Shown here: in pieces, positions 10,224 to 60,280 of the stretch
Numbering within the stretch: the first letter of the stretch is position 1
Layout of the letters: each line of letters starts with the position of its first letter
Source of the DNA: Candidatus Uhrbacteria bacterium
Lineage (GTDB): Bacteria; Patescibacteriota; Patescibacteriia; JACRJV01
DNA length: 64,000 nucleotides
Assembly (NCBI GenBank): GCA_016215325.1
Contig: JACRJV010000026.1
Span: 95,955-159,954 of the forward strand
Direction of reading: 5' to 3'
Notes under the pieces: generated by a model
Databases searched by the model: none
What the model was told of the DNA's origin: nothing
What the model saw: only the letters and a program-made list of their open reading frames with translations
Made by a program: the position numbers and the translations under genes

Positions 10224-10427
10224 ATGCAACAAGGAACAATCGCCCGTCTCACAGACCGTGGCTTTGGATTTATCGCCCGCGAAGGTGAGGAAAAAGAACT
10301 CTTTTTCCACGCTAGCGCCCTGGTCGGTGTCCAATTCACCGATCTCAAAGAGGGGGACAAAGTGACCTTCGAAGTCGGACAAGGCCCAAAAGGCCCGAAC
10401 GCCACGAATGTCCAACGCGTGAGCTAA
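10224..10427 (+). CDS. cspA: Cold-shock protein (CspA family)
   Basis: MQQGTIARLTDRGFGFIAREGEEKELFFHASAL… carries the RNP1/RNP2 motifs; 67 aa. Confidence 0.9.
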   Translation: MQQGTIARLTDRGFGFIAREGEEKELFFHASALVGVQFTDLKEGDKVTFEVGQGPKGPNATNVQRVS

Positions 10428-10439
10428 CTCCTTCCGCAA

Positions 10440-10470
10440 AAAACACTCCGGTTCACCGGAGTGTTTTTAT
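10440..10470 (+). terminator. Rho-independent terminator of cspA
   Basis: Stem aacactccgg / ccggagtgtt with a ttca loop, followed by TTTTAT. Confidence 0.8.
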
Positions 10471-10526
10471 GTACCAAAATTCTTCGGAATGGGAGAGTGC
10501 TGGGGGTCATAACCCGTTTTTATGTT

Positions 10527-11003
10527 TTACAAATCACTCACGTTGTCTGGCAGATGATCGATTCCGCCAAATTCTTTAACAATGATGGATTTGATTTTTT
10601 GTTTCATTTCCGGTTTTACGAAAGTAATGGTCATTCCTTTTTCGCCGCCGATACTTTCGCAATCGTCTTCGATTAAAATTTCGGGTATGACACGCTCTGC
10701 TACATCTTTGTATTCTTCGGCATCTTTTCTAAATTCCAAAGTACCTGTGGGGAAATTTTGTAGGACACCACGAATATCATTGATCTCTTTATCAGTTCGG
10801 CGAGAAGTTAAATAAACGATTTCCTCACCTTGCTCTTTCCATTTTTTGATTTTCTCAATAGCATCTCCAATCGGTACATATTCAGCGTAACTTTTTACGG
10901 AGGACTCTTGCTCTATAACTTGCTTAACAATTGTAGAGCGGTCATGTCCGACTCCATTTTTTGGCATTAAGATTGTACCTTCGGTAAAGATGAGGATTTT
11001 CAT
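10527..11003 (-). CDS. Hypothetical protein in an AT-rich insertion
   Basis: 158-aa ORF with clean coding appearance. Its 4-nt overlap with the downstream gene suggests an operon. No motif recognised. Confidence 0.4.
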   Translation of the reverse strand: MKILIFTEGTILMPKNGVGHDRSTIVKQVIEQESSVKSYAEYVPIGDAIEKIKKWKEQGEEIVYLTSRRTDKEINDIRGVLQNFPTGTLEFRKDAEEYKDVAERVIPEILIEDDCESIGGEKGMTITFVKPEMKQKIKSIIVKEFGGIDHLPDNVSDL

Positions 11004-11398
11004 ATATTTGCCTTCATAACTAATTCTTTGTGTCCGCTTTCCGAGTCAAACTCTCTTGAGAATTCCAAATCCTCAATCTCCCCAATAGCAACCTCTGCCG
11101 TAACTCCAACCACTGAACCGTCCTTTAAGTGTCCACCAAAAGTTTTACCCTCTTCATCAGAAAGACAAACATGGATATGACTATTTCCCGCTTCTACCGT
11201 TCCAACTACGGAAACAATTTCAAAACTCCCATCCCATGTCTTAATAATTTTTGCGTTAGCCATGCGCAAAACAGCTTTTGTTAAATTGCCCACGCAAGTA
11301 AGAATGATGCCAGCGCGAATATTATTTTGTACAACATATTTATCAATTTCTTCTTTGAAGTTTTGTCCTGGATGCAAACGAAAGATGTGAGTTTTCAT
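11000..11398 (-). CDS. PPC (DUF296) domain DNA-binding protein
   Basis: Matches the PPC/DUF296 pattern: …NIRAGIILTCVGNLTKAVLR…FEIVSVVGTV…HIHVCLSDEEGKTFGGHL. Confidence 0.5.
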   Translation of the reverse strand: MKTHIFRLHPGQNFKEEIDKYVVQNNIRAGIILTCVGNLTKAVLRMANAKIIKTWDGSFEIVSVVGTVEAGNSHIHVCLSDEEGKTFGGHLKDGSVVGVTAEVAIGEIEDLEFSREFDSESGHKELVMKANI

Positions 11399-11540
11399 AG
11401 TTTATTCTCTGAATAAGTCCATCTCCTTATTCCACTTCTCAACTCGCAATATAGCATTTTTGTACACTGTCGATTTTGGCTGGTCAATCAATTCTGCTAA
11501 ATCGCAAAGTTCGTTGATTCGCCCGTAGATTACCATTCGC

Positions 11541-12247: not shown

Positions 12248-12269
12248 ATGATAGCATTATATCATAATA

Positions 12270-12296
12270 TGGTGACTGACCCTATTTTTCATTTGG
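12270..12296. repeat. Right terminal inverted repeat of the RAYT element
   Basis: tggtgactgaccctatttttcatttgg is approximately the reverse complement of aaatgaaaatggggtcagccacca. Confidence 0.55.
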
Positions 12297-12575: not shown

Positions 12576-12653
12576 TGGTAGCCCCATGGGGATTCGAACC
12601 CCAGTTTTCTGGCTGAGAACCAGACGTCCTAGACCGGGCTAGACGATGAGGCC
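12576..12653 (-). tRNA. tRNA-Glu, anticodon CUC, with encoded CCA and a G1-U72 wobble pair
   Basis: On the minus strand: GGCCTCA TC GTC… anticodon arm TCTGG-TTCTCAG-CCAGA; T-arm TGGGG-TTCGAAT-CCCCA; 3' acceptor TGGGGCT-A-CCA. The acceptor pairs throughout, with two G-U wobbles. Confidence 0.6.
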
Positions 12654-12779: not shown

Positions 12780-13073
12780 CTACGGCTTGCCCACGCCGGC
12801 CACGGCCTGGGCGTGCTGCTCCAGATCCGGGCGGGGATTGCCCGCATCGGTGGCGTTGGCGGATGTGGCGTCGACTTGGGCACCTAACGCGTCTTCGATG
12901 ACGTCGAACTTCCGGACTGTCGAAGCCAACTCCCGGAGCTTTCCTAGGGTGTACACCCTAGGCTCCTTGAACTCGTCGTCGACGAATTCCCAGTGGACGA
13001 TTCTGCCCTGATTGTCCTTCTTGAGGATCAGGGTGAGCCCTTTGGCCACGCTGATCTGCTCGATGAGAGTCAA
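12780..13073 (-). CDS. Hypothetical 97-aa protein encoded in a high-GC islet
   Basis: ORF MTLIEQISVAKGLTLILKKDNQGRIVHWEFVDDEF… sits in a roughly 0.4-kb stretch clearly GC-richer than its flanks. Confidence 0.3.
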   Translation of the reverse strand: MTLIEQISVAKGLTLILKKDNQGRIVHWEFVDDEFKEPRVYTLGKLRELASTVRKFDVIEDALGAQVDATSANATDAGNPRPDLEQHAQAVAGVGKP

Positions 13074-23977: not shown

Positions 23978-23980
23978 AGA

Positions 23981-24931
23981 TTATACGTGTTCGGCGGCCC
24001 GCAATCGTGCACTGCGCGAGGTGGGGTACTGGCGGAGTTCTTCGGTCGAAGGAGTAATAGATCTTGCCGTTAACAATTTGACGGTCGCCGAGGTACCGCA
24101 AATGCAAATCGGCGCCTCGGGCGGGCAAACGCAGGACTTCGCTAACATCCGCAGCGTCTGTTTTACAATCCGATCTTCGAGCGAATGATACGAAATAATC
24201 ACAATCCGGCCGTTTGGGTTCAGGACATCCACCCACACCTTGATGGCACGCTGGATAATGGCCAGCTCATCATTGACCGCAATCCGAAGGGCTTGGAGCA
24301 CCAGTGTCATCGGATTGTGGCGGCGATGCGCTCGCACAAGAGGGACAACAAGGAACTCTAACTCGCCAACAGTGGTCAGCGGCGATACGCCGCGATACTG
24401 GACGATAGTGCGTGCAAGCTGTTTTGCAGATGGCACTTCTCCATATTCGCGCAACCAGCGTTCGATCTCTTGCGCACTCTTGTCGCGTAAGAGGTCTGCA
24501 GCGGTCGGGATGGCGGCGCTCGGATCAAATCGCAGATCCAACGGGGCGGAGGCGTAGCGGAAACTCATCCCGCGTCTGGGATCTTCGAGGTGCTGGATCG
24601 CCACTCCCAGATCGAGCAGCACTCCATCGACGTGGGTTTTACCGGCAGCCCCGAGAATCTCTGCCACGTGGTCATAAGAGTTATGGACAAGCATGACACA
24701 ACTCTTCCAGGCAGCAAGGGTTTCCGCGGCAGCCAGCAGCTGCTGCGGATCTCGATCGACGCCGATGAGCATCCCATCATGACCAGCGCAAATGACTTCT
24801 GCAATGCGTTTGGCATGCCCTCCGGATCCGACAGTACCATCGACCACTGTCTGACCGGGAGCGCACGCTAAGTATTGAATAGCTTCATTCGCGAGGACGG
24901 GATGATGGCTCAAAAAAATTCCAATTTCCAA
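23981..24931 (-). CDS. rsmH: 16S rRNA (cytosine1402-N4)-methyltransferase RsmH / MraW
   Basis: VDGTVGSGGHA…, DLGVA-type SAM-binding motifs; gene adjacent to mraZ. Confidence 0.85.
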   Translation of the reverse strand: MEIGIFLSHHPVLANEAIQYLACAPGQTVVDGTVGSGGHAKRIAEVICAGHDGMLIGVDRDPQQLLAAAETLAAWKSCVMLVHNSYDHVAEILGAAGKTHVDGVLLDLGVAIQHLEDPRRGMSFRYASAPLDLRFDPSAAIPTAADLLRDKSAQEIERWLREYGEVPSAKQLARTIVQYRGVSPLTTVGELEFLVVPLVRAHRRHNPMTLVLQALRIAVNDELAIIQRAIKVWVDVLNPNGRIVIISYHSLEDRIVKQTLRMLAKSCVCPPEAPICICGTSATVKLLTARSITPSTEELRQYPTSRSARLRAAEHV

Positions 24932-26105: not shown

Positions 26106-28403
26106 ATGGCCGAATCCTATTTTTTGCCATTTGAATACCCGCATAAAAGCACGAGTCGCTCTCATCGCGTCTGGGTTGCTCCTGTTTCGAGTCGGCAACA
26201 AGAATCCTGGGGCACGCTGTGTGCCGTGGTTCAGGTCCCCTCTTCCGCCAATGCCGACCATCTCTTCCGCCAATTGTGCGATCTATTTACCAAGTTGTAT
26301 TATCCCACCACCATCGCAACAAGAACCAAACAGAGCCAAAGCGATCAAGCGCACGCGCGCACGCTCCAGTTTGAACAAATGCTGCAAGAGCTCAACGAAG
26401 ATTTTGTCAATCTCGAACGATTCGGGATTGATGCGCGAGAGCGCACGGAATTTGACGTATTGCTCGCACTCATCCACCCCGACGAAGTATTGATTGCCAA
26501 CCACGTTGGCGCACATGCCTGGTTCGTGGGCGCCAACGGCCAAGGACCATCAGAAGATTTCCGGATGGAGCAGCTCACAAATGAAAACAATGGCGAAGAC
26601 TTCTTCTCGTCCGTAACCAGCGGCACCTTGTCTTCCAGCGAAACAATCGTATTGGCCACGGGAGATTTTTTCTCGTATTGGCGGCCCGAGCGGGTGATCC
26701 ATCAGATCGATACGGCCGAAAGCACCGAAGAGCTCCTAGAGATATTAGAACAGGAAGGCAACGATTCGCAAGCACAACCGCAAGCGGCATTATTTGTTCT
26801 CGGGTTAAGCCCCGAAACCCAATCGGAGCCAGAAGAAGGAGAGGACGAAGAACCAGTCTCGGAGTCCGGCGAGGTCTCATCACGGCCCACAAGGCCTGGG
26901 ACGCACACCACAACATCCCCCCAATCCAATGGCCGGCAACTTCATCAAGCTGCCCAAGCAACAGTTGTATCGTTAGCGCCGATCCTGCAATTTTTCGCCA
27001 ACGCCGTCATCCGCAGCGTGCGATCTCTTGGGGTCGGGAGCGTACGCGCCGTCCGCTGGCTTGTCCGCAACCGGCATGAATTGCCGCAGGTCGCCAAAAC
27101 AATTGCAGATCGTTTCCAACGGGCAATCCGCTGGGTGGTGATGGTGTTGTTATGGTGCTGGTCGCTCGTGCGCAGCGTACTCCTGCTGCTGGGATTTGGC
27201 GTGGCAACGCTCATTGGGCACACCGCAGGGAAAGACGCGTTTGCAAAACAATTGGAGAAAGAACCGGCCATGCGCAGCGCCCGCCTCACCACTGCAATCC
27301 AACAACAGTCGAATGTTGCCAATGCCATTGCGATTGGGATGGTACTGATTATTATCGCCGGCGCCGGAGCGGTCACGCGCCTCCAATACAGCCGCCTCAA
27401 ACAACTCGAGCAAGACCAGCGCCAAGAAATTGAGCAAAAAATTACCCAAGCGCAAGGGCCGCTCATCTATGGTGACGATACGACGGCAAAGTCGCTGCTC
27501 GAGCAGGCGCGCGCATTATTAGATCAGCTCCCCGATCGCGCCAACGACCCTACCAAAAGCCAAATTCAAAAAGAATTGGATGAGTTAGCGCAGCAACTCC
27601 GGCATGAGATTCTACTGCCCGCGCCGACCGTAACGATTCCAGCGATCGAGGAGGCGGCGGCCATGGCAGCAACGCCCACAACGTTCGTGGTCGCGAGTAC
27701 GAGCCAAGTCGCTATTTTTGATGCACGCGACCTTGCCCGCAAGCGAGTCCCAAGAATTATTAAACTGCCCGCCGGCAAAATCCAAACGATCAGCTCGATT
27801 GATCTCACCACAACCCTGGCGCTGATCCATGACGGACCCAATGTTCATCGAATTCCATTAGATGGAAAATCCCCAATGACAACGGTGGCACTCCCCTCGA
27901 CGGTCGGCCGCGTTCGCACACTGTTTAACAGCCGTCTCTATGCGGTCGACGCCGCAGGGAAACAATTGCTCAAATTAAATCCTGCCAGCAATACATGGGC
28001 AAAACCCACCGTGTGGTTTACCGATCCAGCACTTCAGCTACCGCGTGGACTCAGCGCAATCGCCGTGGATGGGGCGGTGTATGCATCGACCGACCATGAC
28101 GTCGTCAAGTATTATCAAGGCAAACCAGAACTGTTTACCACCACAATCGAGCCGCCCCTTGAGCGCCCGCAACACATAATCGCGCCGGAAAATGATCCAA
28201 ATCTTTTTGTACTCGATTCAAAGAGAGTTATTGTTCTTGACAAGGGGGCAACAAAGAAAGAACGCGGCGGCATTACCGTTGGACAATTAGTGGACAAGCG
28301 CTGGAATCAGGTTCAAGATTTTGTTGTCGACACAAAACTCAAACATTTGATAGTACTGGCAGACGGCAATATTCTGCAGTACCCCCTGCCGACACTTAAA
28401 TAG
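26106..28403 (+). CDS. Large hypothetical membrane protein: cytoplasmic N-domain, acidic linker, two TM helices, C-terminal repeat domain
   Basis: Two TM helices (VVMVLLWCWSLVRSVLLLLGFGVATLIGH and VANAIAIGMVLIIIAGAGAV); acidic segment PEEGEDEEPVSESGEV; repetitive beta-rich C-terminal region. Confidence 0.5.
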   Translation: MAESYFLPFEYPHKSTSRSHRVWVAPVSSRQQESWGTLCAVVQVPSSANADHLFRQLCDLFTKLYYPTTIATRTKQSQSDQAHARTLQFEQMLQELNEDFVNLERFGIDARERTEFDVLLALIHPDEVLIANHVGAHAWFVGANGQGPSEDFRMEQLTNENNGEDFFSSVTSGTLSSSETIVLATGDFFSYWRPERVIHQIDTAESTEELLEILEQEGNDSQAQPQAALFVLGLSPETQSEPEEGEDEEPVSESGEVSSRPTRPGTHTTTSPQSNGRQLHQAAQATVVSLAPILQFFANAVIRSVRSLGVGSVRAVRWLVRNRHELPQVAKTIADRFQRAIRWVVMVLLWCWSLVRSVLLLLGFGVATLIGHTAGKDAFAKQLEKEPAMRSARLTTAIQQQSNVANAIAIGMVLIIIAGAGAVTRLQYSRLKQLEQDQRQEIEQKITQAQGPLIYGDDTTAKSLLEQARALLDQLPDRANDPTKSQIQKELDELAQQLRHEILLPAPTVTIPAIEEAAAMAATPTTFVVASTSQVAIFDARDLARKRVPRIIKLPAGKIQTISSIDLTTTLALIHDGPNVHRIPLDGKSPMTTVALPSTVGRVRTLFNSRLYAVDAAGKQLLKLNPASNTWAKPTVWFTDPALQLPRGLSAIAVDGAVYASTDHDVVKYYQGKPELFTTTIEPPLERPQHIIAPENDPNLFVLDSKRVIVLDKGATKKERGGITVGQLVDKRWNQVQDFVVDTKLKHLIVLADGNILQYPLPTLK

Positions 28404-28498: not shown

Positions 28499-28909
28499 CT
28501 ACTTGAGGGTTACTTTCCCGCCAGCCTCTTCCAGCTTTTTCTTGATGGTTTCGGCTTCTTGCTTTGACACGCCTTCCTTCACCACCTTTGGCGCCCCGTC
28601 CACAAGATCTTTAGCTTCTTTCAAGCCCTTTTCCGTCACCTCGCGGATCACTTTAATCACATTGATCTTGTTGGCGCCAGAATCCGTAAGTTCAACCGTA
28701 AAGGCGGTCTTCTCTTCTGCCGCTTCGGCCGGGGCGGCGCCGGCGGCCGGCATCGCACCCATCATCACCGGGGCTGCAGCGGACACGCCAAACTTCTTCT
28801 CCAAAATCTTCACGAGTTCTGCGCAATCCAGCACAGAAAGTTTTTCGATCGAATCCACCAGAGTTTTAAACTTCTCTGGCACTTCGACCACTTGCATTTC
28901 TTCAGACAT
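28499..28909 (-). CDS. rplL: 50S ribosomal protein L7/L12
   Basis: …[22 protein letters not shown]…, an alanine-rich hinge, and C-terminal KVIREVT…GLKEAKDLV. Confidence 0.9.
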
Positions 28910-28992: not shown

Positions 28993-29514
28993 TTATTTCT
29001 TAGAATTTCCAATCGCGTCAATAACACTGACGAGTTGTCGAATATTGGCATTGAGCGCTCCCACCACGCCGGAAATCGGCGCATTGAGTAACCCAACCAA
29101 TTGGCCGCGCAGTTGTTGTTTTGTCGGCAGCGTACTCACCGCTGTGACCTCTTCCGCAGTAATCCATCGCCCCTCGAAGATTCCCCCGAGCGGGTTGATC
29201 ACCTCATTTTTCTTGCGGAAGGTCATCAAGACCTTTGCGGGTGCGACTTCGTCGCCATATCCCAGCAACAGACTGATGCTCCCGGCTAAGCTGCGGGCCG
29301 ACACGGTCCAACCCGTGTCCTTCACCGCCACGTCAAGCAAAGTTTTCTTGACCGAGACATATTCAGCCTGTTCTGCTTCCAGTTGTTTGCGCAGCTCCTG
29401 GCTCTGAGCAACGCTCATCGCGTTGTAGCTTGCAACCACAACAGACTTGGCACGGCCCAAATGATCCTTGAGCCCGGCAACGATTTCTTCTTTTCGACTT
29501 CGTGTTTTTGCCAT
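28993..29514 (-). CDS. rplJ: 50S ribosomal protein L10
   Basis: [19 protein letters not shown]…[21 protein letters not shown]. Confidence 0.85.
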
Positions 29515-29825
29515 AAAACAATAAAACTGTGGTTCTTATCCCACAGTGTTCTATCACTTTCCGTCACTGTCATCCTTGGGCTTGATCCCGCTTCTCGCAG
29601 AGGCGGGATGACCCGACGAGGATCCAGAAAAGAAAAGGTTTTTTCCTATCATCGGATTTACGGTCTCTGACGACCTTTAAGGCAGAGATGACCGATGGTC
29701 TGTGGAAATAGATTGTGCCAATACGATACCGGATATCGGCTGACTTGTCAACTATTCAGCACTTCCGCTACACTGCCGCTACCACAGTGTATCCTTAACC
29801 CTAACCAAGCCCGGAAGGAGGGCTC

Positions 29826-30239
29826 ATGAATCACAACGGAGGGGACCACCTCGCACTTGCCCAGGCGATCATGGTCGAGTGCATGGGCAACAACTTCACT
29901 CGGTTTCCCATGCTCAAGGATCTGATCTCGCGCAACAAGGTGAGGTTCACTCAGCTCGGGATCGAGACGGCAACCCTCAACCAGTGGGAGTTCGGCTGGA
30001 AGGAGGAGACGGAAGTCGAGGCCGAGCTCGAGCGCGAGCGGCTTCGAGACCAGGCGAAGGAGTTCCTGTACAGGGGGCTCCAGCCCTACGTCGGTCGCCA
30101 TGGCGAGACCAAAGCGCGCGTGGGGATCAAGAAGATCTTCCAGGACTTCGCGGGCGCTGCTCGCGAGAACCGCGATAAGGTCGCCAAATTCCTGAAAATC
30201 CACCCGGCAGAACTGCAACGCATCCTCGCTGGACAATAG
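29826..30239 (+). CDS. Hypothetical protein, first gene of high-GC islet 2; preceded by the strong RBS GGAAGGAGGG
   Basis: ORF with canonical SD spacing in a region clearly GC-richer than its flanks; no motif recognised. Confidence 0.45.
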   Translation: MNHNGGDHLALAQAIMVECMGNNFTRFPMLKDLISRNKVRFTQLGIETATLNQWEFGWKEETEVEAELERERLRDQAKEFLYRGLQPYVGRHGETKARVGIKKIFQDFAGAARENRDKVAKFLKIHPAELQRILAGQ

Positions 30240-30245
30240 GAGGAA

Positions 30246-30626
30246 TTGATGAGCACCGAAGAACAGGAACTCATGGAGCAACTCAAGCAGCGGATTGGTG
30301 AGGTCAGCGTCGACTCTCACCTCGCCACCGCCGAGCGCATCCGTGAGCATATGCACGATTTCAGCCCCGAACTCGTGGCAAGAGCAATCGGGGTCGAACT
30401 GCGGGTGCTGGAGAGCGTGCTGCACGCCATCGAAGTCAAGCAGGCCGCCTGGCTGCTGGAGCAGTACCGGAAGGCTCCGGGCGAGACGTGCCATGGCGGC
30501 GATCTCTGCTGGCTGATGGTCGGACGGGAAATCGCCGATCACGAAATCGGCCTCACGCCGTGCGAAAATCAGGCCCTCGGCCTGGATCGGTGCCGGCAAT
30601 TGATCCGGCAGCTCCAGCAAGCCTAG
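30246..30626 (+). CDS. Hypothetical protein, second gene of the islet operon; RBS AGGAGGAATTG
   Basis: Starts 6 nt after the previous stop and has a strong SD. Confidence 0.45.
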   Translation: MMSTEEQELMEQLKQRIGEVSVDSHLATAERIREHMHDFSPELVARAIGVELRVLESVLHAIEVKQAAWLLEQYRKAPGETCHGGDLCWLMVGREIADHEIGLTPCENQALGLDRCRQLIRQLQQA

Positions 30627-30858
30627 GGCAATCACGAATAGACCATCAACAACGAGCACTGTGGGAGCCCCGGAATCGATGCGAAGGAGGCGCGTCGGTC
30701 CGGGGTTTCTCATATTGTTCCTGCCATCCCAGACTAGAACCTGGGATCCAGAAACGTCAAAATAAACGAGTCTTGTGCTAACGTATTAACACGCTAATAC
30801 AGAACAACTAGGGCAGGAGGAATGCATGTCCCCTGCCCCGCTGAAATCGCTCCTCCCT

Positions 30859-31365
30859 TCAGGGATCGATATCTCCGCCATATTGTTCCCATAGTTCCTG
30901 GAAGTCTGCTTCGACCTGCCGATGCAACCGATCGTCGTCTTCATCGGCAAGTTCTGCCGCGATTGGACCGTCTACCTCGGGCTCGGGCATTGGGGGCAGC
31001 GGACTTGGCGCTGCCGACGGTGTTTCGGTCACCGCGGTATTGTCCAGCGGCTTGGTGCTGCTATCGGCATCGAGGGGATGTTCTGGGGAAGGCCCAGAGC
31101 GATGGTTGCGTGGCGGGATCCGCCGGGCACGCAACCAAAGCCGGTATGTACCACGCCGAAGAAGTTCAAGGTGTCGCTCATCCGAAAAGATGACTTGAAT
31201 CGCCTGCACCAGCTCTTCCGCCCCATCCACAGCGCATGCCCAAAGGATCGATCCCCGCCAGGAGCGAATCGTGATCCGGAATCGAAACAAAAACGCCTCC
31301 CCAAAGGAAGGCAAATGCGGTTGATTCCTGATCAACTGATGATACAGTTGCCGGATGTCGCGCAT
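30859..31365 (-). CDS. Hypothetical protein with a Pro-rich / acidic C-terminus, convergent in the high-GC islet
   Basis: ORF in the high-GC segment with a low-complexity tail; it could still be an antisense artefact. Confidence 0.3.
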   Translation of the reverse strand: MRDIRQLYHQLIRNQPHLPSFGEAFLFRFRITIRSWRGSILWACAVDGAEELVQAIQVIFSDERHLELLRRGTYRLWLRARRIPPRNHRSGPSPEHPLDADSSTKPLDNTAVTETPSAAPSPLPPMPEPEVDGPIAAELADEDDDRLHRQVEADFQELWEQYGGDIDP

Positions 31366-31434
31366 CTCACACTCCCTTCAAGGTAGAGCGTCCGTATGGC
31401 GTTGCCGATACTATAGCAAAATACTTCCTTCTCG

Positions 31435-32160
31435 TCACGGATGCAGCGTTGTTGCGGCAAACGCTTTGCCCTCTAAAGCATTTTTCAAATTGGCCAATTT
31501 ACCCCCATCCATAACCGTGACTGTCAACCCGTGGCGCTGCGCAAACGCAGCGGCCACTGGGTCAAACGGCGCGTGGGCGGACGGTTTGAACGTCTTCATA
31601 CCCAGAATTTTTTTGTACTGCTTCCACGTGAGCTCTGGGTATGCCACCGCATGTTTATCATAACGAGGGTCGCCGGAGTAAACGTAGTCCACGTTTGTAA
31701 GATTAAAAATTCGCTTTGCATGGTAGGTCTTGCCGAGCACCACCGCATCTTTGTCCGTTGAATGCCCAGGTAACCACCCGGCCGCGATCGCAACAGGATG
31801 ATCAAGATTCACTCGTACCGTTGGGTCACCCAGCACGGCGGGATGGCTATAGGGGGAAAACAACACCCTAAAAAATTCTGCGTTTAATTTTGTGGCCGCA
31901 ATGCCAATCCAATGGCGGTCTACTTCCTTGGCTTTGGGGTTCAACGCCAAAGCAGCCTTGGCATAGGAACGACTCGGTCCCCCGCCGCCGGTGACAATAA
32001 TAAACCGCTGTCCACGCCGAACATACTTGAGGATCAGCTCTCGGAACTTCTTAAGATAAACACCCTCAATATGGCCGATGGTCTTGCCAGAATGATCCGT
32101 TGGGGCAATCAGAGACCCGCCGATAGACAGAACGATCATACTTAGATTTCTAATTATCAA
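31435..32160 (-). CDS. pyrH: Amino-acid-kinase family protein, archaeal-type UMP kinase-like
   Basis: MIVLSIGGSLI…; RFIIVTGGGGPSRSY; the C-terminal region is AAK-like. Confidence 0.5.
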   Translation of the reverse strand: MIIRNLSMIVLSIGGSLIAPTDHSGKTIGHIEGVYLKKFRELILKYVRRGQRFIIVTGGGGPSRSYAKAALALNPKAKEVDRHWIGIAATKLNAEFFRVLFSPYSHPAVLGDPTVRVNLDHPVAIAAGWLPGHSTDKDAVVLGKTYHAKRIFNLTNVDYVYSGDPRYDKHAVAYPELTWKQYKKILGMKTFKPSAHAPFDPVAAAFAQRHGLTVTVMDGGKLANLKNALEGKAFAATTLHP

Positions 32161-32201
32161 AATTTGGACATCAAAAATTTTATTGGGAATTGGGAATTAG
32201 A
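32143..32201. repeat. Weak member of the heptamer-palindrome family (…ctaattatcaaaat … attgggaattgggaattag)
   Basis: Read from the sequence. Confidence 0.4.
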
Positions 32202-32937
32202 TATTATGTTTCCGTATAATAATATTTTTTGCTGCTTGATACCTCTCTATCGTCTTCTTCCACCATGGCAAATATTTAAAGGGGGCGTGATACGCGAATG
32301 AGGGAACCCACTGGCTCATGGTCCCGCCGGTGGCTATGGTGTAGAGTACTTCCGGGATGAATACCCCCCTGCCGCCGCGCTCGGCAATTGTTAAAAAGAG
32401 GTCCCAGTCCTGGAATTTCTTGAGGCTCTCGTCAAACCGCGGGAAGGCACCGCGGCGCAGTAAAGAGCTAGTATGAATGTAGTTCAATTGGCGCAATGTT
32501 GCAAGATCAAAGGGGAATGAACTAAACTTCTTATGACTAAAAAGGAATTGGCTGTAGCTGAATGCCGCGTCCGGGTGTTGCTCGAGCGCTTCCCACATTT
32601 TTTCAAGACAATCCGGCTCCAGACGAATATCGGCATCACAAAAAAAGAGAAGGTCACCATTGCAAGCATCAAACCCGCGATTGCGCGCAGCGGCTGCTCC
32701 CCTATTTTGTTGATCAATCCATTGTATGGAGAATCCCTTACGTTGTAGTAAATCTGCAATCTGCAATCTGCAATCTGCAATCGTATCCGTCGATCCATCA
32801 TTGACAATAATAATCTCAGTTTCTATTCTAATGTTTTTAAGAACATTAGAATAGATAGATTGTTCAAGAATACTCTCGACACAGGCTTCGAGTTCTTTGG
32901 CGTGATTATATACCGGGATGATGATCGAAACTAGCAT
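32197..32937 (-). CDS. Family 2 glycosyltransferase
   Basis: MLVSIIIPVYN…; IIVNDGSTD; …FCDAD. Confidence 0.8.
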   Translation of the reverse strand: MLVSIIIPVYNHAKELEACVESILEQSIYSNVLKNIRIETEIIIVNDGSTDTIADCRLQIADLLQRKGFSIQWIDQQNRGAAAARNRGFDACNGDLLFFCDADIRLEPDCLEKMWEALEQHPDAAFSYSQFLFSHKKFSSFPFDLATLRQLNYIHTSSLLRRGAFPRFDESLKKFQDWDLFLTIAERGGRGVFIPEVLYTIATGGTMSQWVPSFAYHAPFKYLPWWKKTIERYQAAKNIIIRKHNI

Positions 32938-33003
32938 AATCTAAGTCACAGAGGTACAATAGTCGCAACACTGCTAGAGTATCAGAAGCATCAAAAATCA
33001 ACA

Positions 33004-33330
33004 ATGTTTATGGATCCCATTGAATTCCTCCGACAATTCCGCTTTGGTGGATATGCCATTTTCGATTTTACCACGGCATTTTTAGGCATCGCCATCATTT
33101 CGCCGTTACTGTCAAAACTGTTCCGCAAGATCAGACTCGATATCCCCAAACGAAACTGGATATTTTTGACATTGCCAATCGGCATCATCACTCATCTACT
33201 GATCAACAAAATCACACCAATGACCGCGCGCTTCCTAGACCTCCAGGGTCATTATATTCTCAAAATAGTGATCGTCGCTCTGCTCATTCTGGGGTTACGC
33301 GGGATTAAAGTGGTCCAGAAATCTAAATAA
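33004..33330 (+). CDS. Small membrane protein (three predicted TM helices)
   Basis: Three hydrophobic segments; lies in the AT-rich island. Confidence 0.4.
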   Translation: MFMDPIEFLRQFRFGGYAIFDFTTAFLGIAIISPLLSKLFRKIRLDIPKRNWIFLTLPIGIITHLLINKITPMTARFLDLQGHYILKIVIVALLILGLRGIKVVQKSK

Positions 33331-33336
33331 CATCTT

Positions 33337-34311
33337 ATGCACCCCGACAGAACCATTCCCGGCATCACCCACACCGCAGACTCACCAATAACTGAGCATG
33401 CCTCAATGGAAGCGGATCGGACGAAGCAAAATACGGAACGAGCCGCACAAGAGCTACAGGAACGATTGGAACAGATCAAACGCGAAGTTCTCCTACTGCT
33501 AAAACAAAAAGAAGAAGCCTCCACGAGCGCCTCCCAAGAGCGCGGCAAACTTTTAGATTTATGGAGGAAGAAGCTCATTAGCTCAAAAGATGAGTTCAAA
33601 CTTCTCTCCGATAAACTTTCGGAATTAGAAAATTCTATCGACAATCAAATCGTCAGAAAGAAAACAGAGTACCGACTAACAAGAATGGAGTATCTTTCTG
33701 AAACGACTCCTCCCGATGCCATCCGCCAACGCGTACTGGACTTGCATATCGAGGATAACATCGAACAATTTACAAACCTCAGCATCCAAGCGGGGGGCTC
33801 GAATGCTCAAGGAGTTTTTGAAATTGAAAATGGTGACTTTGTGTTAATAAAGAAAGTGCCGGAAAGTTATGAATACAACGTTGCCCTGCCCTTCATCATG
33901 CAGGGAATACAAAGCGATAGGATTCCTCGTGTACTGCAAATCTTTAAAACCGATGATGCAACGTATACTGTTACAGAGAGGGCACGGGGCACTCAAGTCG
34001 ATCAACTCTCCGAGGAACAAATCGCAGAGATTCCACAAGAGCATTTTAATCAGTTCCTCCGCGATCTTGCAATGTTAGGCGAAAAAGGGTTGCAGATCGA
34101 CCCCTCCAAAAAAAGTAATTTCTTCTATGATGCTCAGAAAGGGTTTAGCATCATTGATATTGGAGACCATCACAACGCCCCAACGCAAACCGGGATACCG
34201 AACAATCTACGCGTTAACGATCTGCAAGCAATTCTCACAGGACCAAAGCAAGACCAAAGAATTATTGATAAAATCCAAGAAGCTCTTACACAGATAAATC
34301 GCCCACTATGA
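33337..34311 (+). CDS. Coiled-coil protein with a C-terminal atypical protein-kinase-like domain
   Basis: Gly-rich loop GGSNAQGVFEI; Lys strand VLIKKV; catalytic-loop-like LQIDPSKKSNFFYD; DFG-like IIDIGD. Confidence 0.35.
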   Translation: MHPDRTIPGITHTADSPITEHASMEADRTKQNTERAAQELQERLEQIKREVLLLLKQKEEASTSASQERGKLLDLWRKKLISSKDEFKLLSDKLSELENSIDNQIVRKKTEYRLTRMEYLSETTPPDAIRQRVLDLHIEDNIEQFTNLSIQAGGSNAQGVFEIENGDFVLIKKVPESYEYNVALPFIMQGIQSDRIPRVLQIFKTDDATYTVTERARGTQVDQLSEEQIAEIPQEHFNQFLRDLAMLGEKGLQIDPSKKSNFFYDAQKGFSIIDIGDHHNAPTQTGIPNNLRVNDLQAILTGPKQDQRIIDKIQEALTQINRPL

Positions 34312-34478
34312 AGGTAACACTATACATGGCAACAACCATCAATGGATATGTTTGAGTACCAAAAAATTATCGAAAGATACTATACAATTGCATTATGAGA
34401 TTTCGCGTTGATCATCATTGGTCTGCTTATTCTGGGGTTATGGAAGACAAAGACTGTGAAATAATAAGACGAACATGA

Positions 34479-34808
34479 ATGTCTAATCTAATACATATAA
34501 CATCTATGCGTCCAAAGAACCTAGGCATACTGGTCGTAATTGTGATGGTAATTATTTTAGGTGTTTCACTTTATATTGATATTGCAACAGAAAATGAAAA
34601 AATACCCCGGATTCTCACCACAACAGAGCAGTACGCGTGTCCTGACCGCAATAAACTTGATTATAACAAAACAACACAAACGTACATCCAATGGAATAAC
34701 TGCATGCCCTGTCCAGGAGTGAGACCGCCATGTCTCCCTGATTCTCAATTTGAACAATGGGTCAACAAAAATTGTGGGATAAAATTCAAAATTAACGTCG
34801 CGGAGTAG
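34479..34808 (+). CDS. Small secreted or membrane-anchored cysteine-rich protein (6 Cys)
   Basis: N-terminal signal/anchor LGILVVIVMVIILGVSLYI, then CPDR…CMPCPGVRPPC…NC. Confidence 0.4.
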   Translation: MSNLIHITSMRPKNLGILVVIVMVIILGVSLYIDIATENEKIPRILTTTEQYACPDRNKLDYNKTTQTYIQWNNCMPCPGVRPPCLPDSQFEQWVNKNCGIKFKINVAE

Positions 34809-51990: not shown

Positions 51991-53895
51991 TCATTGCCGC
52001 AACCGCATGCTCTGCCCAGGCTTCAGCACCGTGGGTTTCACAGGGACCGGTTTGGGCTCTGGGGCCCCGCGATCTGAGGCCCCAACAATGGGGGATGTAG
52101 CCGGGGCATCGGCTGGTGATGGTATTGCGCTTGGCCCACCGCTCGTTCTGGGTTGTTGTACTCGGCCGCGGAAATCTACCGGCTTCATCTGCATCGCCGC
52201 ATCCAGACTCATGGGGGCAGGCGTCTCTGCGCTTTTGGCAGACAGAGCAGGAGGTTTCTCTGCGACAACCACCACCGGCGCTGCTCTGCCGGAGCGTACC
52301 TCTTTGAGGCACTCTTTGCAATAAATCGGTTTGGAGGGGTCTGGAATAAAATTGAGCATGGTGTCGGTCCCGCAGCGGCTGCACTTGTATACGGCTGGGT
52401 TGTCCACCGGCGGCTTGGCGTTTTCGGGCGGCTTCTTTTTTTTGCGTTTTTTTGTTTGGAGTTCACCACTGCCTGCTCCGCTGCCCGGGATGGCTGCGGG
52501 GGCGGGGACAATCGTTTTTACGGGTTGCGCCGCAGGCGCTGCATCCATTCGGCGTACCACAACAGGGGCGCTGGAGGCAGCCGAACCCGTTGTGGTCGCA
52601 ATCCCTTCGCTCCATCGATTAATCTTATCCTCAACCACCTCTCTGCTCGTGCCATACCGTTCGCGAGAGACTGCGATCACTTTCGCGTTGTTGTTTTGCC
52701 GCTGCGAAAGCGGCGGCAAAATCGTTGCAGAAAATGGGTCCGAAGAGACTCCGTCAATCATGAGTTTCAAATATACGGAGTATTTAGCCAGATTCACAAG
52801 GTCTTCCTCCGTAAATCGGGGGGTAAACTCTGGCACCAATTTGAGCGCATCCGCCCCGCCCACCCGGAACGAAATAATCGTGCCCACGTTGCCGAACACC
52901 GCGGCTGCCACTTTCTCATCCAGCTGTTCAATATACTGGTGTGCGACAATAAGGCTCAAACGATATTTCCGCGCCTCGGACAAAATGTTAGAAAAACTTT
53001 CTGTCGCAAAATTCTGGAACTCATCCACGTATAAGTAAAAGTCTCGGCGGTCATCTTCGGGCGTGTCCACGCGCTCCATGGCGGCCAGTTGAATCTTGGT
53101 GATTAGCATCCCGCCCAAAAGCCTTGAATTATCCTCTCCAATGCGCCCTTTTGCCAGGTTCATCACAAAAATCTTCCCGCTGTCCATGATATCGCGCACG
53201 TTAATGGTCGAACGGACTTGGCCCACAATATTGCGGATCACCGCCGTCGACAGAAATTGTCCAACCTTATTTTGGATTGGCGCGATGGCTTCGGATGCGT
53301 AGCGGTCATTGTATTTCGCAAATTCATTCACCCAGAACGATTTGACCACCGGGTCGTTAATCTTGGCGATCACGCGTTTACGGAAGTTGGTGTCCGCCAA
53401 CATCCGGTTGATCCCCAGCAGCGTCGATCCCGGGTAATCCAAAAGCGCTAAGACAGTATTATTTAAGATGTATTCCATGCGCGCGCTCCACACATCCGGC
53501 CAGATTTTTTTGAACACGCCCATGAGTCCCGACGCGATCAAGTGTTTGTGCGTTTCATCCACGGTTTCGAGTATATTGAATGCAAGCGGATAATTCACAT
53601 CCGACGGATTCATATAGACCACGTCGTTGATCCGATGCGAGGGAATAAAATCAAGGATGCGCTCTGCAAAATCGCCATGCGGATCCACGATGCCCACCCC
53701 ATGTCCGGCCATGATGTCATTGAATAAGAGATTTTCGAGCAAATTGGTTTTGCCCATGCCGGTTTTCCCAATCACATACATATGCCGGCGTCGATCGTCG
53801 GTTTTAATGCCAAACCGACGCCGTTGGTTCCGAAAGTTCGTTTCGGCAAACACGGCGATTTCATCATTATGGTCGTGGTCGTATTCTATCGGCAC
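51991..53895 (-). CDS. VirD4/TraG-type (type IV coupling protein-like) P-loop ATPase with a C-terminal zinc ribbon
   Basis: Walker A IGKTGMGKTNLL; VDPHGDF; Walker B/DEF YLYVDEFQNF; ARKYRLSLIVAHQYIEQL; C-terminal CSRCG…CKEC. Confidence 0.55.
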   Translation of the reverse strand: MPIEYDHDHNDEIAVFAETNFRNQRRRFGIKTDDRRRHMYVIGKTGMGKTNLLENLLFNDIMAGHGVGIVDPHGDFAERILDFIPSHRINDVVYMNPSDVNYPLAFNILETVDETHKHLIASGLMGVFKKIWPDVWSARMEYILNNTVLALLDYPGSTLLGINRMLADTNFRKRVIAKINDPVVKSFWVNEFAKYNDRYASEAIAPIQNKVGQFLSTAVIRNIVGQVRSTINVRDIMDSGKIFVMNLAKGRIGEDNSRLLGGMLITKIQLAAMERVDTPEDDRRDFYLYVDEFQNFATESFSNILSEARKYRLSLIVAHQYIEQLDEKVAAAVFGNVGTIISFRVGGADALKLVPEFTPRFTEEDLVNLAKYSVYLKLMIDGVSSDPFSATILPPLSQRQNNNAKVIAVSRERYGTSREVVEDKINRWSEGIATTTGSAASSAPVVVRRMDAAPAAQPVKTIVPAPAAIPGSGAGSGELQTKKRKKKKPPENAKPPVDNPAVYKCSRCGTDTMLNFIPDPSKPIYCKECLKEVRSGRAAPVVVVAEKPPALSAKSAETPAPMSLDAAMQMKPVDFRGRVQQPRTSGGPSAIPSPADAPATSPIVGASDRGAPEPKPVPVKPTVLKPGQSMRLRQ

Positions 53896-57989: not shown

Positions 57990-58346
57990 ATGCCTCCATC
58001 AAAAAAAATAAAAACCCTGGTGATTGTAGAGTCGCCCACCAAAGCAAAGACCATCGCAAAGATGCTTGGCCGCGAATTTAGCGTAAAATCATCATTTGGT
58101 CACATCCGCGATCTGCCAAAAAGTAACATGGGGATCGACCTTGCCCACGACTTCGATCCCCAATATGTGATCCCGAAAGAAAAGCAGCAGCATGTCACAG
58201 AATTAAAGGCCGGCGCGAAAGCCGCTGGGCGTATCATCCTTGCGACGGATGAAGACCGCGAAGGAGAAGCAATCGCATGGCACCTTGCCCAAGCCCTTGG
58301 CTTGGAGAGCGCAAAAGGCAAAGCGCAAAACCCGTTGATCGGATAG
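57990..58346 (+). CDS. topA: DNA topoisomerase I, N-terminal TOPRIM fragment; ends at a frameshift
   Basis: …[18 protein letters not shown]…GHIRDLP…[15 protein letters not shown]…, terminating just before the conserved RIVFHEITK. Confidence 0.7.
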
Positions 58347-60280
58347 TGTTTCACGAAATTACCAAGCGGGCGATTGAGCAGGCGCTGGAGCACCCGCGCA
58401 CCATCAACAAGGATCTTGTTGATGCGCAACAAGCGCGGCGCGTGCTCGATCGGCTCGTCGGGTACGAACTTTCGCCATTCTTATGGCGCAAAGTGGCCCG
58501 CGGGCTATCGGCCGGACGCGTGCAATCAGCGGCGCTGCGGCTGATTGTCGAGCGAGAAGAAGAACGCGAGCAATTCAAGCAACAAGAATACTGGACCATC
58601 GAGGCCGAAATGCAATCAGCATCCGGATCATTCCATGCTGTGCTCACGCACCTTGATAACACTCTGCTATCAAAGTTCGCAATCCCTTCTCAGCAGCGCG
58701 CCGATGAAATTTTGAGTGCCATTGCCCACGGCAAGAGCACCATTGACAAGATCGAAAACAAATCTGCCCGCCGCACGCCCCCGCCGCCGTTCACCACCTC
58801 AACACTCCAACAAGAAGCCAACCGTCGCCTTGGGTACTCGGCAAAACAGACCATGCGCCTCGCCCAACAACTCTACGAAGGAATCGATTTGGGAGCAGAA
58901 GGGCACGCAGGCCTTATCACCTACATGCGTACTGATTCGGTCAACCTCTCGCAAGATTTTCTCGCTGAAGCCAAAGAAGCGATCCAACAACAATTTGGCC
59001 CAACGTACTGGCAGAGCTCGCGCGCATTCACCACAAAATCAAAACTTGCCCAAGAAGCGCACGAGGCAATCCGACCGTCCATGGCTCATCGATCGCCAGA
59101 ACTCGTGAAACCATTCCTTGATCCGCAACAATGGAGACTCTATGACCTGATTTGGCGGCGAGCGGTGGCAAGCCAAATGGCTTTGGCCGAAGTGGATCAA
59201 ACCACCGTGGCAATCCGCACCATCGCCAAACAGCACGCCCAATGGCATGCCAGCGGTGCGGTGATCCGTTTTGACGGTTGGCTTCGTTTGTACCCCACGA
59301 ATACCAAGGAGGGAGAATTGCCAGCACTTTCGGAAGGCGCGCCCGTCACACCAAATCCGATCACACCAGTCCAACATTTTACCCAAGCGCCCGCACGCTA
59401 TAGTGATGCAACTCTCGTCAAGGCTTTGGAAGAGCACGGGATTGGCCGCCCATCCACATATGCCCCGACCATTTCAACGGTCGTTGACCGTAATTACGTT
59501 GAGCGCGACGATGACAAGCGCTTGAAGCCCACGGACATGGGCCGACTCGTCACAAAGGTACTCAAAGAACACTTCCCGAATATTGTCGATCTTGCCTTTA
59601 CCGCAACCATGGAAGATGACCTCGATGCGGTGGCGGAAGGCAAAAAGAAATGGCAGCCGCTCATTGCATCATTCTATACGCCGTTCCACGAAAATCTCCT
59701 CGCAAAAGAAGATGTTGTTTCCAAGAAAGAATTAACCGAAGAACACAGCGACGAGCTGTGCCCCAAGTGCGGCAAGCCCATGCTCATCAAGATCGGACGA
59801 TTTGGGAAATTCTATGCCTGTAGCGGTTACCCCGAATGCAAAAGTACCAAACCCCTTGCCACGGAGGCGGCGGAAACCGGGGCCGCAGCGGCCTCGTCCG
59901 AACCAGCGCCCGATTGCCCCGAATGCGGCAAACCCATGGGGCTGAAACGCGGGCGCTTTGGTTCCTTCTGGGGCTGCACGGGGTACCCCGAATGCAAGGG
60001 CATCAAACGCATTGAGCGTTCCACGGGCATTGTCTGCCCAAAATGCGGGAAGGGTGAAATTGTCGCTCGCCGAAGCAAACGTGGCAAAACATTCTACGGG
60101 TGCAACACGTATCCAGATTGCGACTTTGTACTCTGGAGCAAACCCGTCGTGGATCCAGAAACCAAACAGGCAAAACTTTGCCCAAAGTGCAAATCCTTTC
60201 TGGTATTCGGAGCAAAAAATACAATTCGGTGTTCGAATAAGGAATGTGGGTACAGCGAGGAATCGACGATGGCGGAATAA
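58277..60280 (+). CDS. topA: DNA topoisomerase I, main body with four C-terminal zinc ribbons (+2 frame relative to the N-terminal fragment)
   Basis: [16 protein letters not shown]…[20 protein letters not shown]…[16 protein letters not shown]…; four CPxCG…C zinc ribbons. Confidence 0.8.

Follow-up and report, generated by a model that had tools for sequence, protein, structure and literature searches.

We analyzed a 64-kb stretch of a Candidatus Uhrbacteria metagenome-assembled genome (MAG; contig JACRJV010000026.1; "the window" below) that carries, between the ribosomal protein genes rplJ-rplL and a UMP-kinase-like gene, a GC-rich segment with three small genes of no recognized family. Two of them form a plus-strand operon oriented away from rplJ (gene 1, 137 aa, and gene 2, 125 aa), and the third, coding for 168 aa, faces them on the minus strand (Table 1). 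The NCBI annotation of the locus consists of exactly these three hypothetical proteins, adjoining L10 on a 166-kb contig. An earlier note on this DNA, made from its letters alone, had described positions 29790-31400 as a single islet of recent foreign origin. We found that the islet is two separate things, a foreign-looking operon (29826-30626) and a native-like 168-aa gene, and that the operon sits in what appears by alignment to be an expression slot conserved in the lineage, whose content is different in the only relative that we could retrieve, the metagenome contig OBOI01000716.1 (L002).

The four open reading frames (ORFs) on which the earlier note was based, of 137, 126, 168 and 321 aa, are all present in the ORF list. 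Its 126-aa version of gene 2 begins at a TTG at 30246, while NCBI takes the downstream ATG and hence 125 aa; the gap of 6 nt given there between the stop of gene 1 and the start of gene 2 is correct for the TTG and becomes 9 nt for the ATG. A detail absent from that note is that both genes lie in one reading frame, parted by a single TAG (30237-30239). The two genes are small and adjacent, with a short gap and with one promoter-like site and one hairpin around it. Gene 2 ends in a Cys/His cluster (CHGGDLC...C-x9-C).

Table 1. Features of the locus between rplL and the UMP-kinase-like gene, in order along the window. SD, Shine-Dalgarno site.
Feature	Position	Strand	Basis	Remarks
rplL	28499-28909	-	ORF list
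rplJ	28993-29514	-	ORF list
L10-leader region	~29515-29720	-	Alignment with L002	Conserved
Leader hairpin with T-run	29547-29526	-	Sequence	Just before the rplJ start
rplJ promoter	29723-29751	-	Consensus scan	TTGACA-17-TATCGT; L002 has TTGACA-17-TATCCT
Divergent promoter-like site of the plus-strand operon	29745-29774	+	Consensus	TTGTCA-18-TACACT; L002 has TTGTCA-17-TACACT
321-aa ORF	29748-30713	-	ORF list	Codon-complement frame of the plus-strand genes; antisense shadow, judged not to be a gene
Palindrome	29769-29791			TACACTG-N9-CAGTGTA, read from the sequence; overlaps the divergent -10; both 7-bp arms in L002, with an N11 spacer
SD (GGAAGGAGGG) and ATG of gene 1	29813-29828	+	Duplex energy	Kept in L002 before a different gene
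Gene 1 (MBI5135563.1, HZA86_05025)	29826-30239	+	ORF, NCBI call	137-aa orphan
SD (AGGAGG) of gene 2	30238-30243	+	Duplex energy	Overlaps the gene 1 stop (TAG); ATG at 30249 follows after 5 nt
Gene 2 (MBI5135564.1, HZA86_05030)	30249 (ATG)-30626	+	ORF, NCBI call	125-aa orphan
GC-rich hairpin	30654-30720	+	-42.5 kcal/mol, z -4.6	3' arm and flank T-rich (GGGGTTTCTCATATTGTT)
Hairpin past the 168-aa gene	30801-30853	-	-26.3 kcal/mol, z -2.0	Just past the stop codon
168-aa gene (MBI5135565.1, HZA86_05035)	30859-31365	-	ORF, NCBI call	Orphan; separate transcription unit
Promoter-like site GTGACG-17-TATAGT with TG	31410-31438	-	Consensus match	5' of the 168-aa gene, in the 3' end of pyrH
UMP-kinase-like gene, pyrH	31435-32160	-	Domain/profile search	AA_kinase domain

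Composition and coding strand

The segment 29790-31400 has 58.7% GC against a window mean of 51.4% (1.6-kb windows, standard deviation 3.1, z 2.3) and ranks first among 624 sliding windows, so the GC-rich stretch described earlier is real; its excess is moderate, with other stretches of the window reaching up to 57%. The tetranucleotide distance is an outlier just at 29.8-30.6 kb (z 3.8, rank 4 of 632), while 30.8-31.6 kb is typical (z -0.1). Two low-GC stretches (10300-11400 and 32200-34800, GC 0.38-0.45) are tetranucleotide outliers as strong as the high-GC segment or stronger. In GC, too, they lie at least as far from the window mean as the segment does. GC content at third codon positions (GC3) is 0.81 in gene 1 (z +3.8), 0.78 in gene 2 (z +3.3) and 0.60 in the 168-aa gene (z +0.55), native genes having 0.55 +/- 0.07. 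A codon model that contrasts sense with antisense and was trained on 53 native genes of the window gave log-odds of -0.015, 0.089 and 0.157 bits per codon for gene 1, gene 2 and the 168-aa gene, respectively, against 0.336 +/- 0.108 for native genes. The plus-strand genes, about 3 standard deviations below the native ones, are therefore not using native codons. In the 168-aa gene the high GC lies at codon positions 1 and 2 and is due to a protein rich in Arg, Pro, Ala, Asp and Glu. Deviant composition and codon usage are thus found in 29826-30626 only. The foreign origin proposed for the whole islet can be maintained for genes 1 and 2, on GC3, tetranucleotides, codon log-odds and their absence from L002, and has to be dropped for the 168-aa gene with its native composition.

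Over 29826-30626 the period-3 GC power is 56.5, above every native gene tested (4-31), and for this reason we conclude that this DNA codes for protein now or did so recently. Periodicity cannot pick the strand, as the plus frame and the frame of the 321-aa minus-strand ORF are codon-complementary, and the codon model could not settle it either, because the segment is foreign to the genes on which it was trained. The 321-aa ORF had been dismissed before as an antisense artifact, a reasonable verdict, yet not a trivial one, since a gene caller took this ORF on a truncated Logan contig. It is moreover the longest ORF of the segment, runs in the same direction as pyrH, the 168-aa gene and rplJ, and has mildly positive amino acid log-odds. 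Of 2000 dinucleotide shuffles of this TA-poor DNA, only 5 reached 321 stop-free codons, against 1476 that reached 137.

That the 321-aa ORF is the real gene, and the plus-strand ORFs its shadows, nevertheless seems very improbable. The plus-strand genes have GC3 (0.8) above GC1 and GC1 above GC2 (first and second codon positions), the order expected of a GC-rich gene, and purines at codon position 1 in proportions of 0.62 and 0.58 (native, 0.60). The minus-strand ORF shows the atypical order GC1 0.76 > GC3 0.66, a position-1 purine proportion of 0.52 and 18% leucine, and its SD is weak (-6.4 kcal/mol). Its start lies inside the conserved hairpin at 30654-30720, which makes up its first 24 codons and has a 2-nt indel in L002 that shifts the frame, and its last ~25 codons span the conserved promoter, palindrome and SD, where L002 has no ORF on that strand. 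A word-indexed search of 5.8 billion clusters found no homologue of it, and the NCBI pipeline called the plus-strand ORFs and not this one. Our preference for the plus strand comes from GC3 exceeding GC1, first-position purines, the strength of the SDs, the conserved signals and the NCBI annotation.

A conserved slot with different content in a relative

A search with an rplJ pattern matched no GTDB representative genome and a single metagenome contig, L002 (10.5 kb), whose L10 is 78% identical. From rplJ to the penicillin-binding protein (PBP) gene, the window and L002 are collinear at ~70% nucleotide identity (blastn/tblastx), and 5' of rplJ the homology runs through the leader, both promoters, the palindrome and the SD and ATG of the divergent gene. 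Similarity ends about 10 codons into this gene, these codons being weakly alike (M-x5-D-x2-A, 19/30 nt), and comes back only at the ~60-nt hairpin. Between these bookends the window has the operon (0.8 kb) and L002 has unrelated DNA, namely, a 68-aa ORF (SD -11.7 kcal/mol, native-like GC3 of 0.57), another copy of the hairpin and, on the opposite strand, a sigma-70 gene. No similarity was found between the 137-aa protein and the 68-aa protein of L002. The search of relatives for an empty site, which the earlier note had proposed as a check, thus gave one contig that is without genes 1 and 2 and has other DNA in their place, so the content at this site does differ, on the evidence of a single relative. 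The alignment shows what appears to be a lineage-conserved expression slot 5' of rplJ-rplL, consisting of a divergent promoter, a palindrome, an SD with its ATG and, ~0.8 kb on, a hairpin.

The divergent site, whose -35 overlaps the -35 of rplJ on the opposite strand, would serve as a sigma-70-type promoter of the operon, and the palindrome could act as an operator. The hairpin at 30654-30720 is likely to be the terminator of the operon. It is 76% identical to positions 400-472 of L002; the outer stem is identical in both genomes, and the inner stem differs yet still pairs (19 pairs, 2 of them compensatory). The window holds a single copy, and a search with the hairpin pattern found none in viral contigs.

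In L002 the 58-nt hairpin is found as a 95% identical direct repeat (405-462 and 2344-2401), with copies 1939 bp apart that bracket a 558/580-aa sigma-70 family gene (regions 2-4). The top NCBIfam models of this gene are RpoS/RpoD, all under cutoff; it has an SD-like GGGAGAG and a native-like GC3. From its sequence, the hairpin pair looks like an att-type duplication produced by site-specific insertion. On this reading the hairpin would be a site of the att or attC type, and the slot a platform with a ready promoter where cassettes are exchanged, the recombinase being encoded elsewhere. Such a scheme would also account for the hairpin being a lone island of conservation with nonhomologous DNA on either side, and for a slot that provides promoter, SD and ATG. 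We consider it quite improbable, since no integrase was found among the ORFs scanned in the window and in the 10 kb of L002 (only some were scanned), the sample is two genomes, and an intrinsic terminator is explanation enough for a stem whose 3' arm and flank are T-rich.

Integron cassettes, and clusters of attC sites lacking integrases (CALIN), resemble the locus in having a promoter-equipped platform, and their attC sites recall the hairpin-forming 58-nt repeat that brackets a gene in L002. They differ from it in several respects. There is no IntI among the scanned ORFs, and the hairpin has neither the R'/R'' cores of integrons (GTTRRRY/RYYYAAC) nor extrahelical bases, its ends being GAGAAAC/GTTTCTC and its stem nearly perfect. 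The 64 kb of the window hold one hairpin, against two copies in L002. In addition, the slot provides an SD and an ATG, which integrons do not. A more ambitious version, in which the space from the rplJ promoter to the hairpin would be a dedicated expression platform of Uhrbacteria, is a long shot. The platform would provide a promoter that shares its -35 with rplJ, an operator-like palindrome and, in a lineage that otherwise does without SDs, an SD with its ATG, and recombination at the hairpin, duplicated in L002 around an inserted sigma-70 gene, would exchange one unrelated orphan cassette for another. If true, this would amount to a cassette system resembling that of integrons, with no integrase linked to it and with a coupling to the transcription of ribosomal proteins.

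On its other side the slot borders a region similar to the autoregulated rplJL operons with an L10 leader, having a conserved promoter, a ~130-nt leader and a hairpin with a T-run before the rplJ start. It differs from them in that Rfam gave no family above threshold, L10_leader included, and nothing relevant, and in that rplK-rplA are not upstream of rplJ-rplL in the window, while in most bacteria rplK-rplA precede these genes. In any case, the leader is a feature of the neighboring operon.

Shine-Dalgarno sites

SD strength was scored over the 20 nt 5' of ~58 ORF starts as the duplex energy with a canonical anti-SD. The window holds no 16S gene. The other starts are those of the longest ORF, so a few are possibly misplaced. 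The three strongest sites are those of gene 1 (-14.7 kcal/mol), the 168-aa gene (-11.2 kcal/mol) and gene 2 (-10.2 kcal/mol). None of the ~55 other starts is under -9.6 kcal/mol, and the majority are above -5, which bears out the contrast between strong SDs here and SD-poor native genes noticed earlier from the sequence. Each plus-strand ORF has a perfect SD at a spacing of 4-5 nt. The claim that these signals represent a foreign style of translation stands in part: all three genes use a style that native genes lack, but the SD of gene 1 is an element of the conserved slot. The window and L002 share AAGGAGGG..ATG, L002 having ACAAGGAGGGAACATG at the aligned position, and the SD of gene 1 was therefore not simply imported with the cargo.

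The core genes of L002 are likewise without SDs. Many native starts of the window lie a few bases behind TATAAT-like hexamers (e.g., 12248-12272 and 23978-24000), and the pattern suggests that leaderless or very short-leader mRNAs are the normal mode of initiation in this organism. According to a published report (PMC9297842), some of the Parcubacteria are without the anti-SD motif, and the lineages without uL1 largely overlap those without the motif in 16S rRNA. Strong SDs are clustered upstream of rplJ in two genomes, one of the sites being conserved, in a lineage that otherwise starts translation without them. If general, this would bear on the survival of SD-led initiation there for a special class of genes.

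Searches for relatives and support of the assembly

No relative of genes 1 and 2 was found among ~15 billion public proteins. An exhaustive phmmer search of 1.84 billion cluster representatives returned only the NCBI entries of the 137- and 125-aa proteins themselves, and a word-indexed search of 5.8 billion clusters gave no match for the 137-X-125 concatenate and only itself for the 168-aa protein. Exact-protein look-ups found only Logan contigs of 1-2 kb from the same run. The 137-, 125-, 168- and 321-aa translations had no relevant match at E <= 1 in Pfam, PHROGs, PADLOC or NCBIfam, and none of them fitted a PADLOC defense model. Among PDB sequences there was nothing except a low-complexity Pro/Ala match of the 168-aa tail. 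Profile, phmmer and PDB sequence searches thus agree with the earlier note in placing the three proteins outside recognized families. Its proposal of a phage or plasmid remnant fared worse: blastn against phage and plasmid DNA, tblastn of the 168-aa protein against phages and a search of viral contigs for any of the three proteins found no match, and neither convincing flanking repeats nor a nearby tRNA is present, so DNA, proteins, repeats and tRNA alike give no sign of such a remnant. Structure prediction, also proposed there, provided no informative fold for the operon, as the single-sequence AlphaFold2 (AF2) models of both plus-strand proteins are all-helical and of low confidence (predicted local distance difference test [pLDDT] ~41).

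The abrupt change in composition could also be the mark of an assembly chimera, with 0.8-1.6 kb of another organism mis-joined into the MAG contig, and one Logan contig (L003) does end at 29797, the left edge of the segment. However, a chimera would need two mis-joins within 1 kb, each beside sequence homologous to the same locus of L002 and with the order and orientation right, as both ends of the segment adjoin L002-homologous sequence in order and orientation. Another Logan contig (L001), from a separate assembly of SRR12113407, is 100% identical to 30216-31952 and runs in one piece from the last 410 nt of the foreign-looking segment through the hairpin and the 168-aa gene into pyrH. In Logan this organism is represented throughout by contigs of 1-2 kb, so breaks are frequent, and the stop of L003 at the left edge may reflect low coverage or population heterogeneity. 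A chimeric assembly, which the earlier note had raised, is therefore extremely improbable.

Origin and possible role of the operon

We lean toward the explanation that the operon is acquired orphan cargo in a variable slot, which is the simplest because the conservation of the slot does not extend to its content, and because GC3 and tetranucleotides are foreign. The operon would have been acquired horizontally from an unsampled, GC-richer, SD-using donor (a phage, a plasmid or the host of the symbiont), and recombination at the conserved bookends, or between them, would have put it in the place of earlier content. It would be transcribed divergently from the rplJ promoter, possibly competing with it, and transcription would end at the hairpin at 30654-30720. 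It would code for two small, helical proteins of the cytoplasm whose translation is coupled and that act together. Our best guess for their role is a small regulator/partner module, with a regulatory or DNA-binding activity as the most plausible, the sole basis for it being two helix-turn-helix-like stretches in gene 1 (RFTQLGIETATLNQWEFG and KFLKIHPAELQRILAG) that were recognized by eye, with no hidden Markov model behind them.

The locus resembles small islets and integration hot spots in its variable content between conserved flanks, its atypical composition and its genes without homologues. It differs from them in being only 0.8 kb long, without an integrase among the scanned ORFs, a nearby tRNA or flanking repeats. 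The conserved flanks are here expression signals (promoter, palindrome, SD with ATG, terminator hairpin) and not genes.

Several observations weigh against acquisition. No donor or homologue of the operon was found, and its horizontal origin is argued from composition alone. No mobility gene was found among the window ORFs scanned, nor a tRNA nearby or a convincing direct repeat at the flanks. Only one relative is available, at ~70% nucleotide identity, a distance at which neutral divergence with indels could erase similarity, so that replacement is unproven. The left junction, where L003 ends, is without independent assembly support. The length of the gene 1 ORF proves nothing by itself, because stop-free runs of 137 codons are common in the shuffles, and genes 1 and 2 have no confident AF2 fold. 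Finally, the conservation of the gene 1 SD suggests that SD-led translation has some native role.

Some of these points would fit vertically inherited, lineage-specific genes that evolve very fast or are decaying and have diverged beyond recognition, with indels, in a slot that would have held a small gene all along. The conserved SD and ATG followed by ~10 weakly similar codons agree with this possibility, as does the level of identity of the core genes, at which unconstrained sequence would be randomized. Moreover, the one TAG that interrupts the shared frame could have arisen lately as a nonsense mutation, in what was one gene of 266 codons. We regard this alternative as unlikely. GC3 and tetranucleotides are 3-4 standard deviations off native values, while the 68-aa ORF in the same slot of L002 is native-like; the period-3 power exceeds that of any native gene tested, unlike what is expected of decay; and gene 2 has a perfect SD at 5 nt.

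Acquired cargo of this kind could also be a type II toxin-antitoxin operon or another small defense or anti-defense cassette, with gene 1 as a DNA-binding antitoxin repressing through the palindrome and gene 2 as the toxin. The architecture agrees with this: two small, tightly spaced and coupled genes, the second with its SD overlapping the upstream stop; a palindrome over the -10; foreign composition in a variable genomic position; and the helix-turn-helix-like stretches of gene 1. However, neither partner matched a recognized toxin or antitoxin family, by profiles even at E <= 1 or by PDB sequences; no homologue of genes 1 and 2 was found, while toxin-antitoxin and defense families are usually widespread; and there is no confident fold. 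The palindrome is kept in L002 before the unrelated 68-aa ORF, and for this reason it does not seem to be an operator matched to the cassette's own protein. This reading appears decidedly unlikely to us, and a toxin-antitoxin, defense or anti-defense role of the operon is unsupported.

Considered as acquired orphan cargo, the operon provides a well-delimited case of orphan, probably horizontally acquired genes in a genome of the Candidate Phyla Radiation, and its use is mainly in annotation, with the plus-strand gene models right, the 321-aa ORF a shadow and the contig free of chimeric joins at the locus. Two genomes have the same expression signals around cargo that is unrelated, which is a hint of a recombination hot spot connected with a ribosomal promoter. 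The conserved slot and the duplication of the hairpin around the L002 sigma factor gene are the sole leads to something less ordinary.

The 168-aa gene and other features of the window

The 168-aa gene stands apart from the operon. It is an orphan of native composition and has a promoter-like site, an SD and a hairpin of its own, the last of which (30801-30853) is a putative terminator. Its AF2 model has a moderately confident beta-beta-alpha-alpha-beta N-domain (residues ~20-82, pLDDT 72-79) followed by a Pro-rich disordered linker and an acidic C-terminal helix. No significant structural neighbor of the model was found.

Inside this ORF, ~50 nt past the start codon, there is another terminator-like hairpin with a T-run (TGCCTTCCTTTGGGGAGGCG TTTTTGTTTC, 31294-31313, minus strand). 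Terminator-like sites of this type number 3, with 2.3 expected, and this one could be due to chance, could be an attenuator or could point to a misannotated start. Among repeated sequences, a recurring CCACAGTG (5 copies, 3 of them close to the locus) and repeats of 12-13 nt around the genes can in our judgment be explained by chance or by hairpin stems.

The UMP-kinase-like gene next to the 168-aa gene gives its top score with the archaeal pyrH model TIGR02076 (144.6 bits, just below the cutoff of 158) and only 34 bits with the bacterial pyrH model. About 40 bp past its far end, and ~0.8 kb from the islet, begins the low-GC stretch 32200-34800, which codes for a GT2 glycosyltransferase and several orphan ORFs. 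Because this stretch is so near the islet, all of 29.8-34.8 kb may be variable. In the other low-GC stretch (10300-11400) there are an orphan ORF of 158 aa and a gene for a PCC-domain protein. A GC3 similar to that of the operon (0.82) was found in a 97-aa ORF (12780-13073, minus strand) that has no SD and a TTG start shortly after a promoter-like site, and that is located between an Asn/Asp/Lys-tRNA-synthetase-like gene and tRNA-Glu (12576-12653).

The window as a whole is bacterial chromosome, with the dcw cluster (mraZ, rsmH, PBP and Mur ligase genes, 20.5-25.5 kb), dnaK, aminoacyl-tRNA synthetases and S11-S4-rpoA-L17. The nearest DnaK sequences among GTDB genomes (72-78% identity) come without exception from MAGs of the Patescibacteria/Parcubacteria type. 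It also codes for a TrwB/TraD-type coupling-protein-like ATPase (51991-53895) and, ~4 kb away, a type IA topoisomerase with three zinc ribbons (58277-60280), which may be part of a conjugative or DNA-uptake module. Convergent to rplL lies a gene for a 765-aa protein without any Pfam domain (26106-28403) that, given its ~74% identity to positions 4258-6531 of L002, appears to be a lineage-specific conserved protein with no assigned function.

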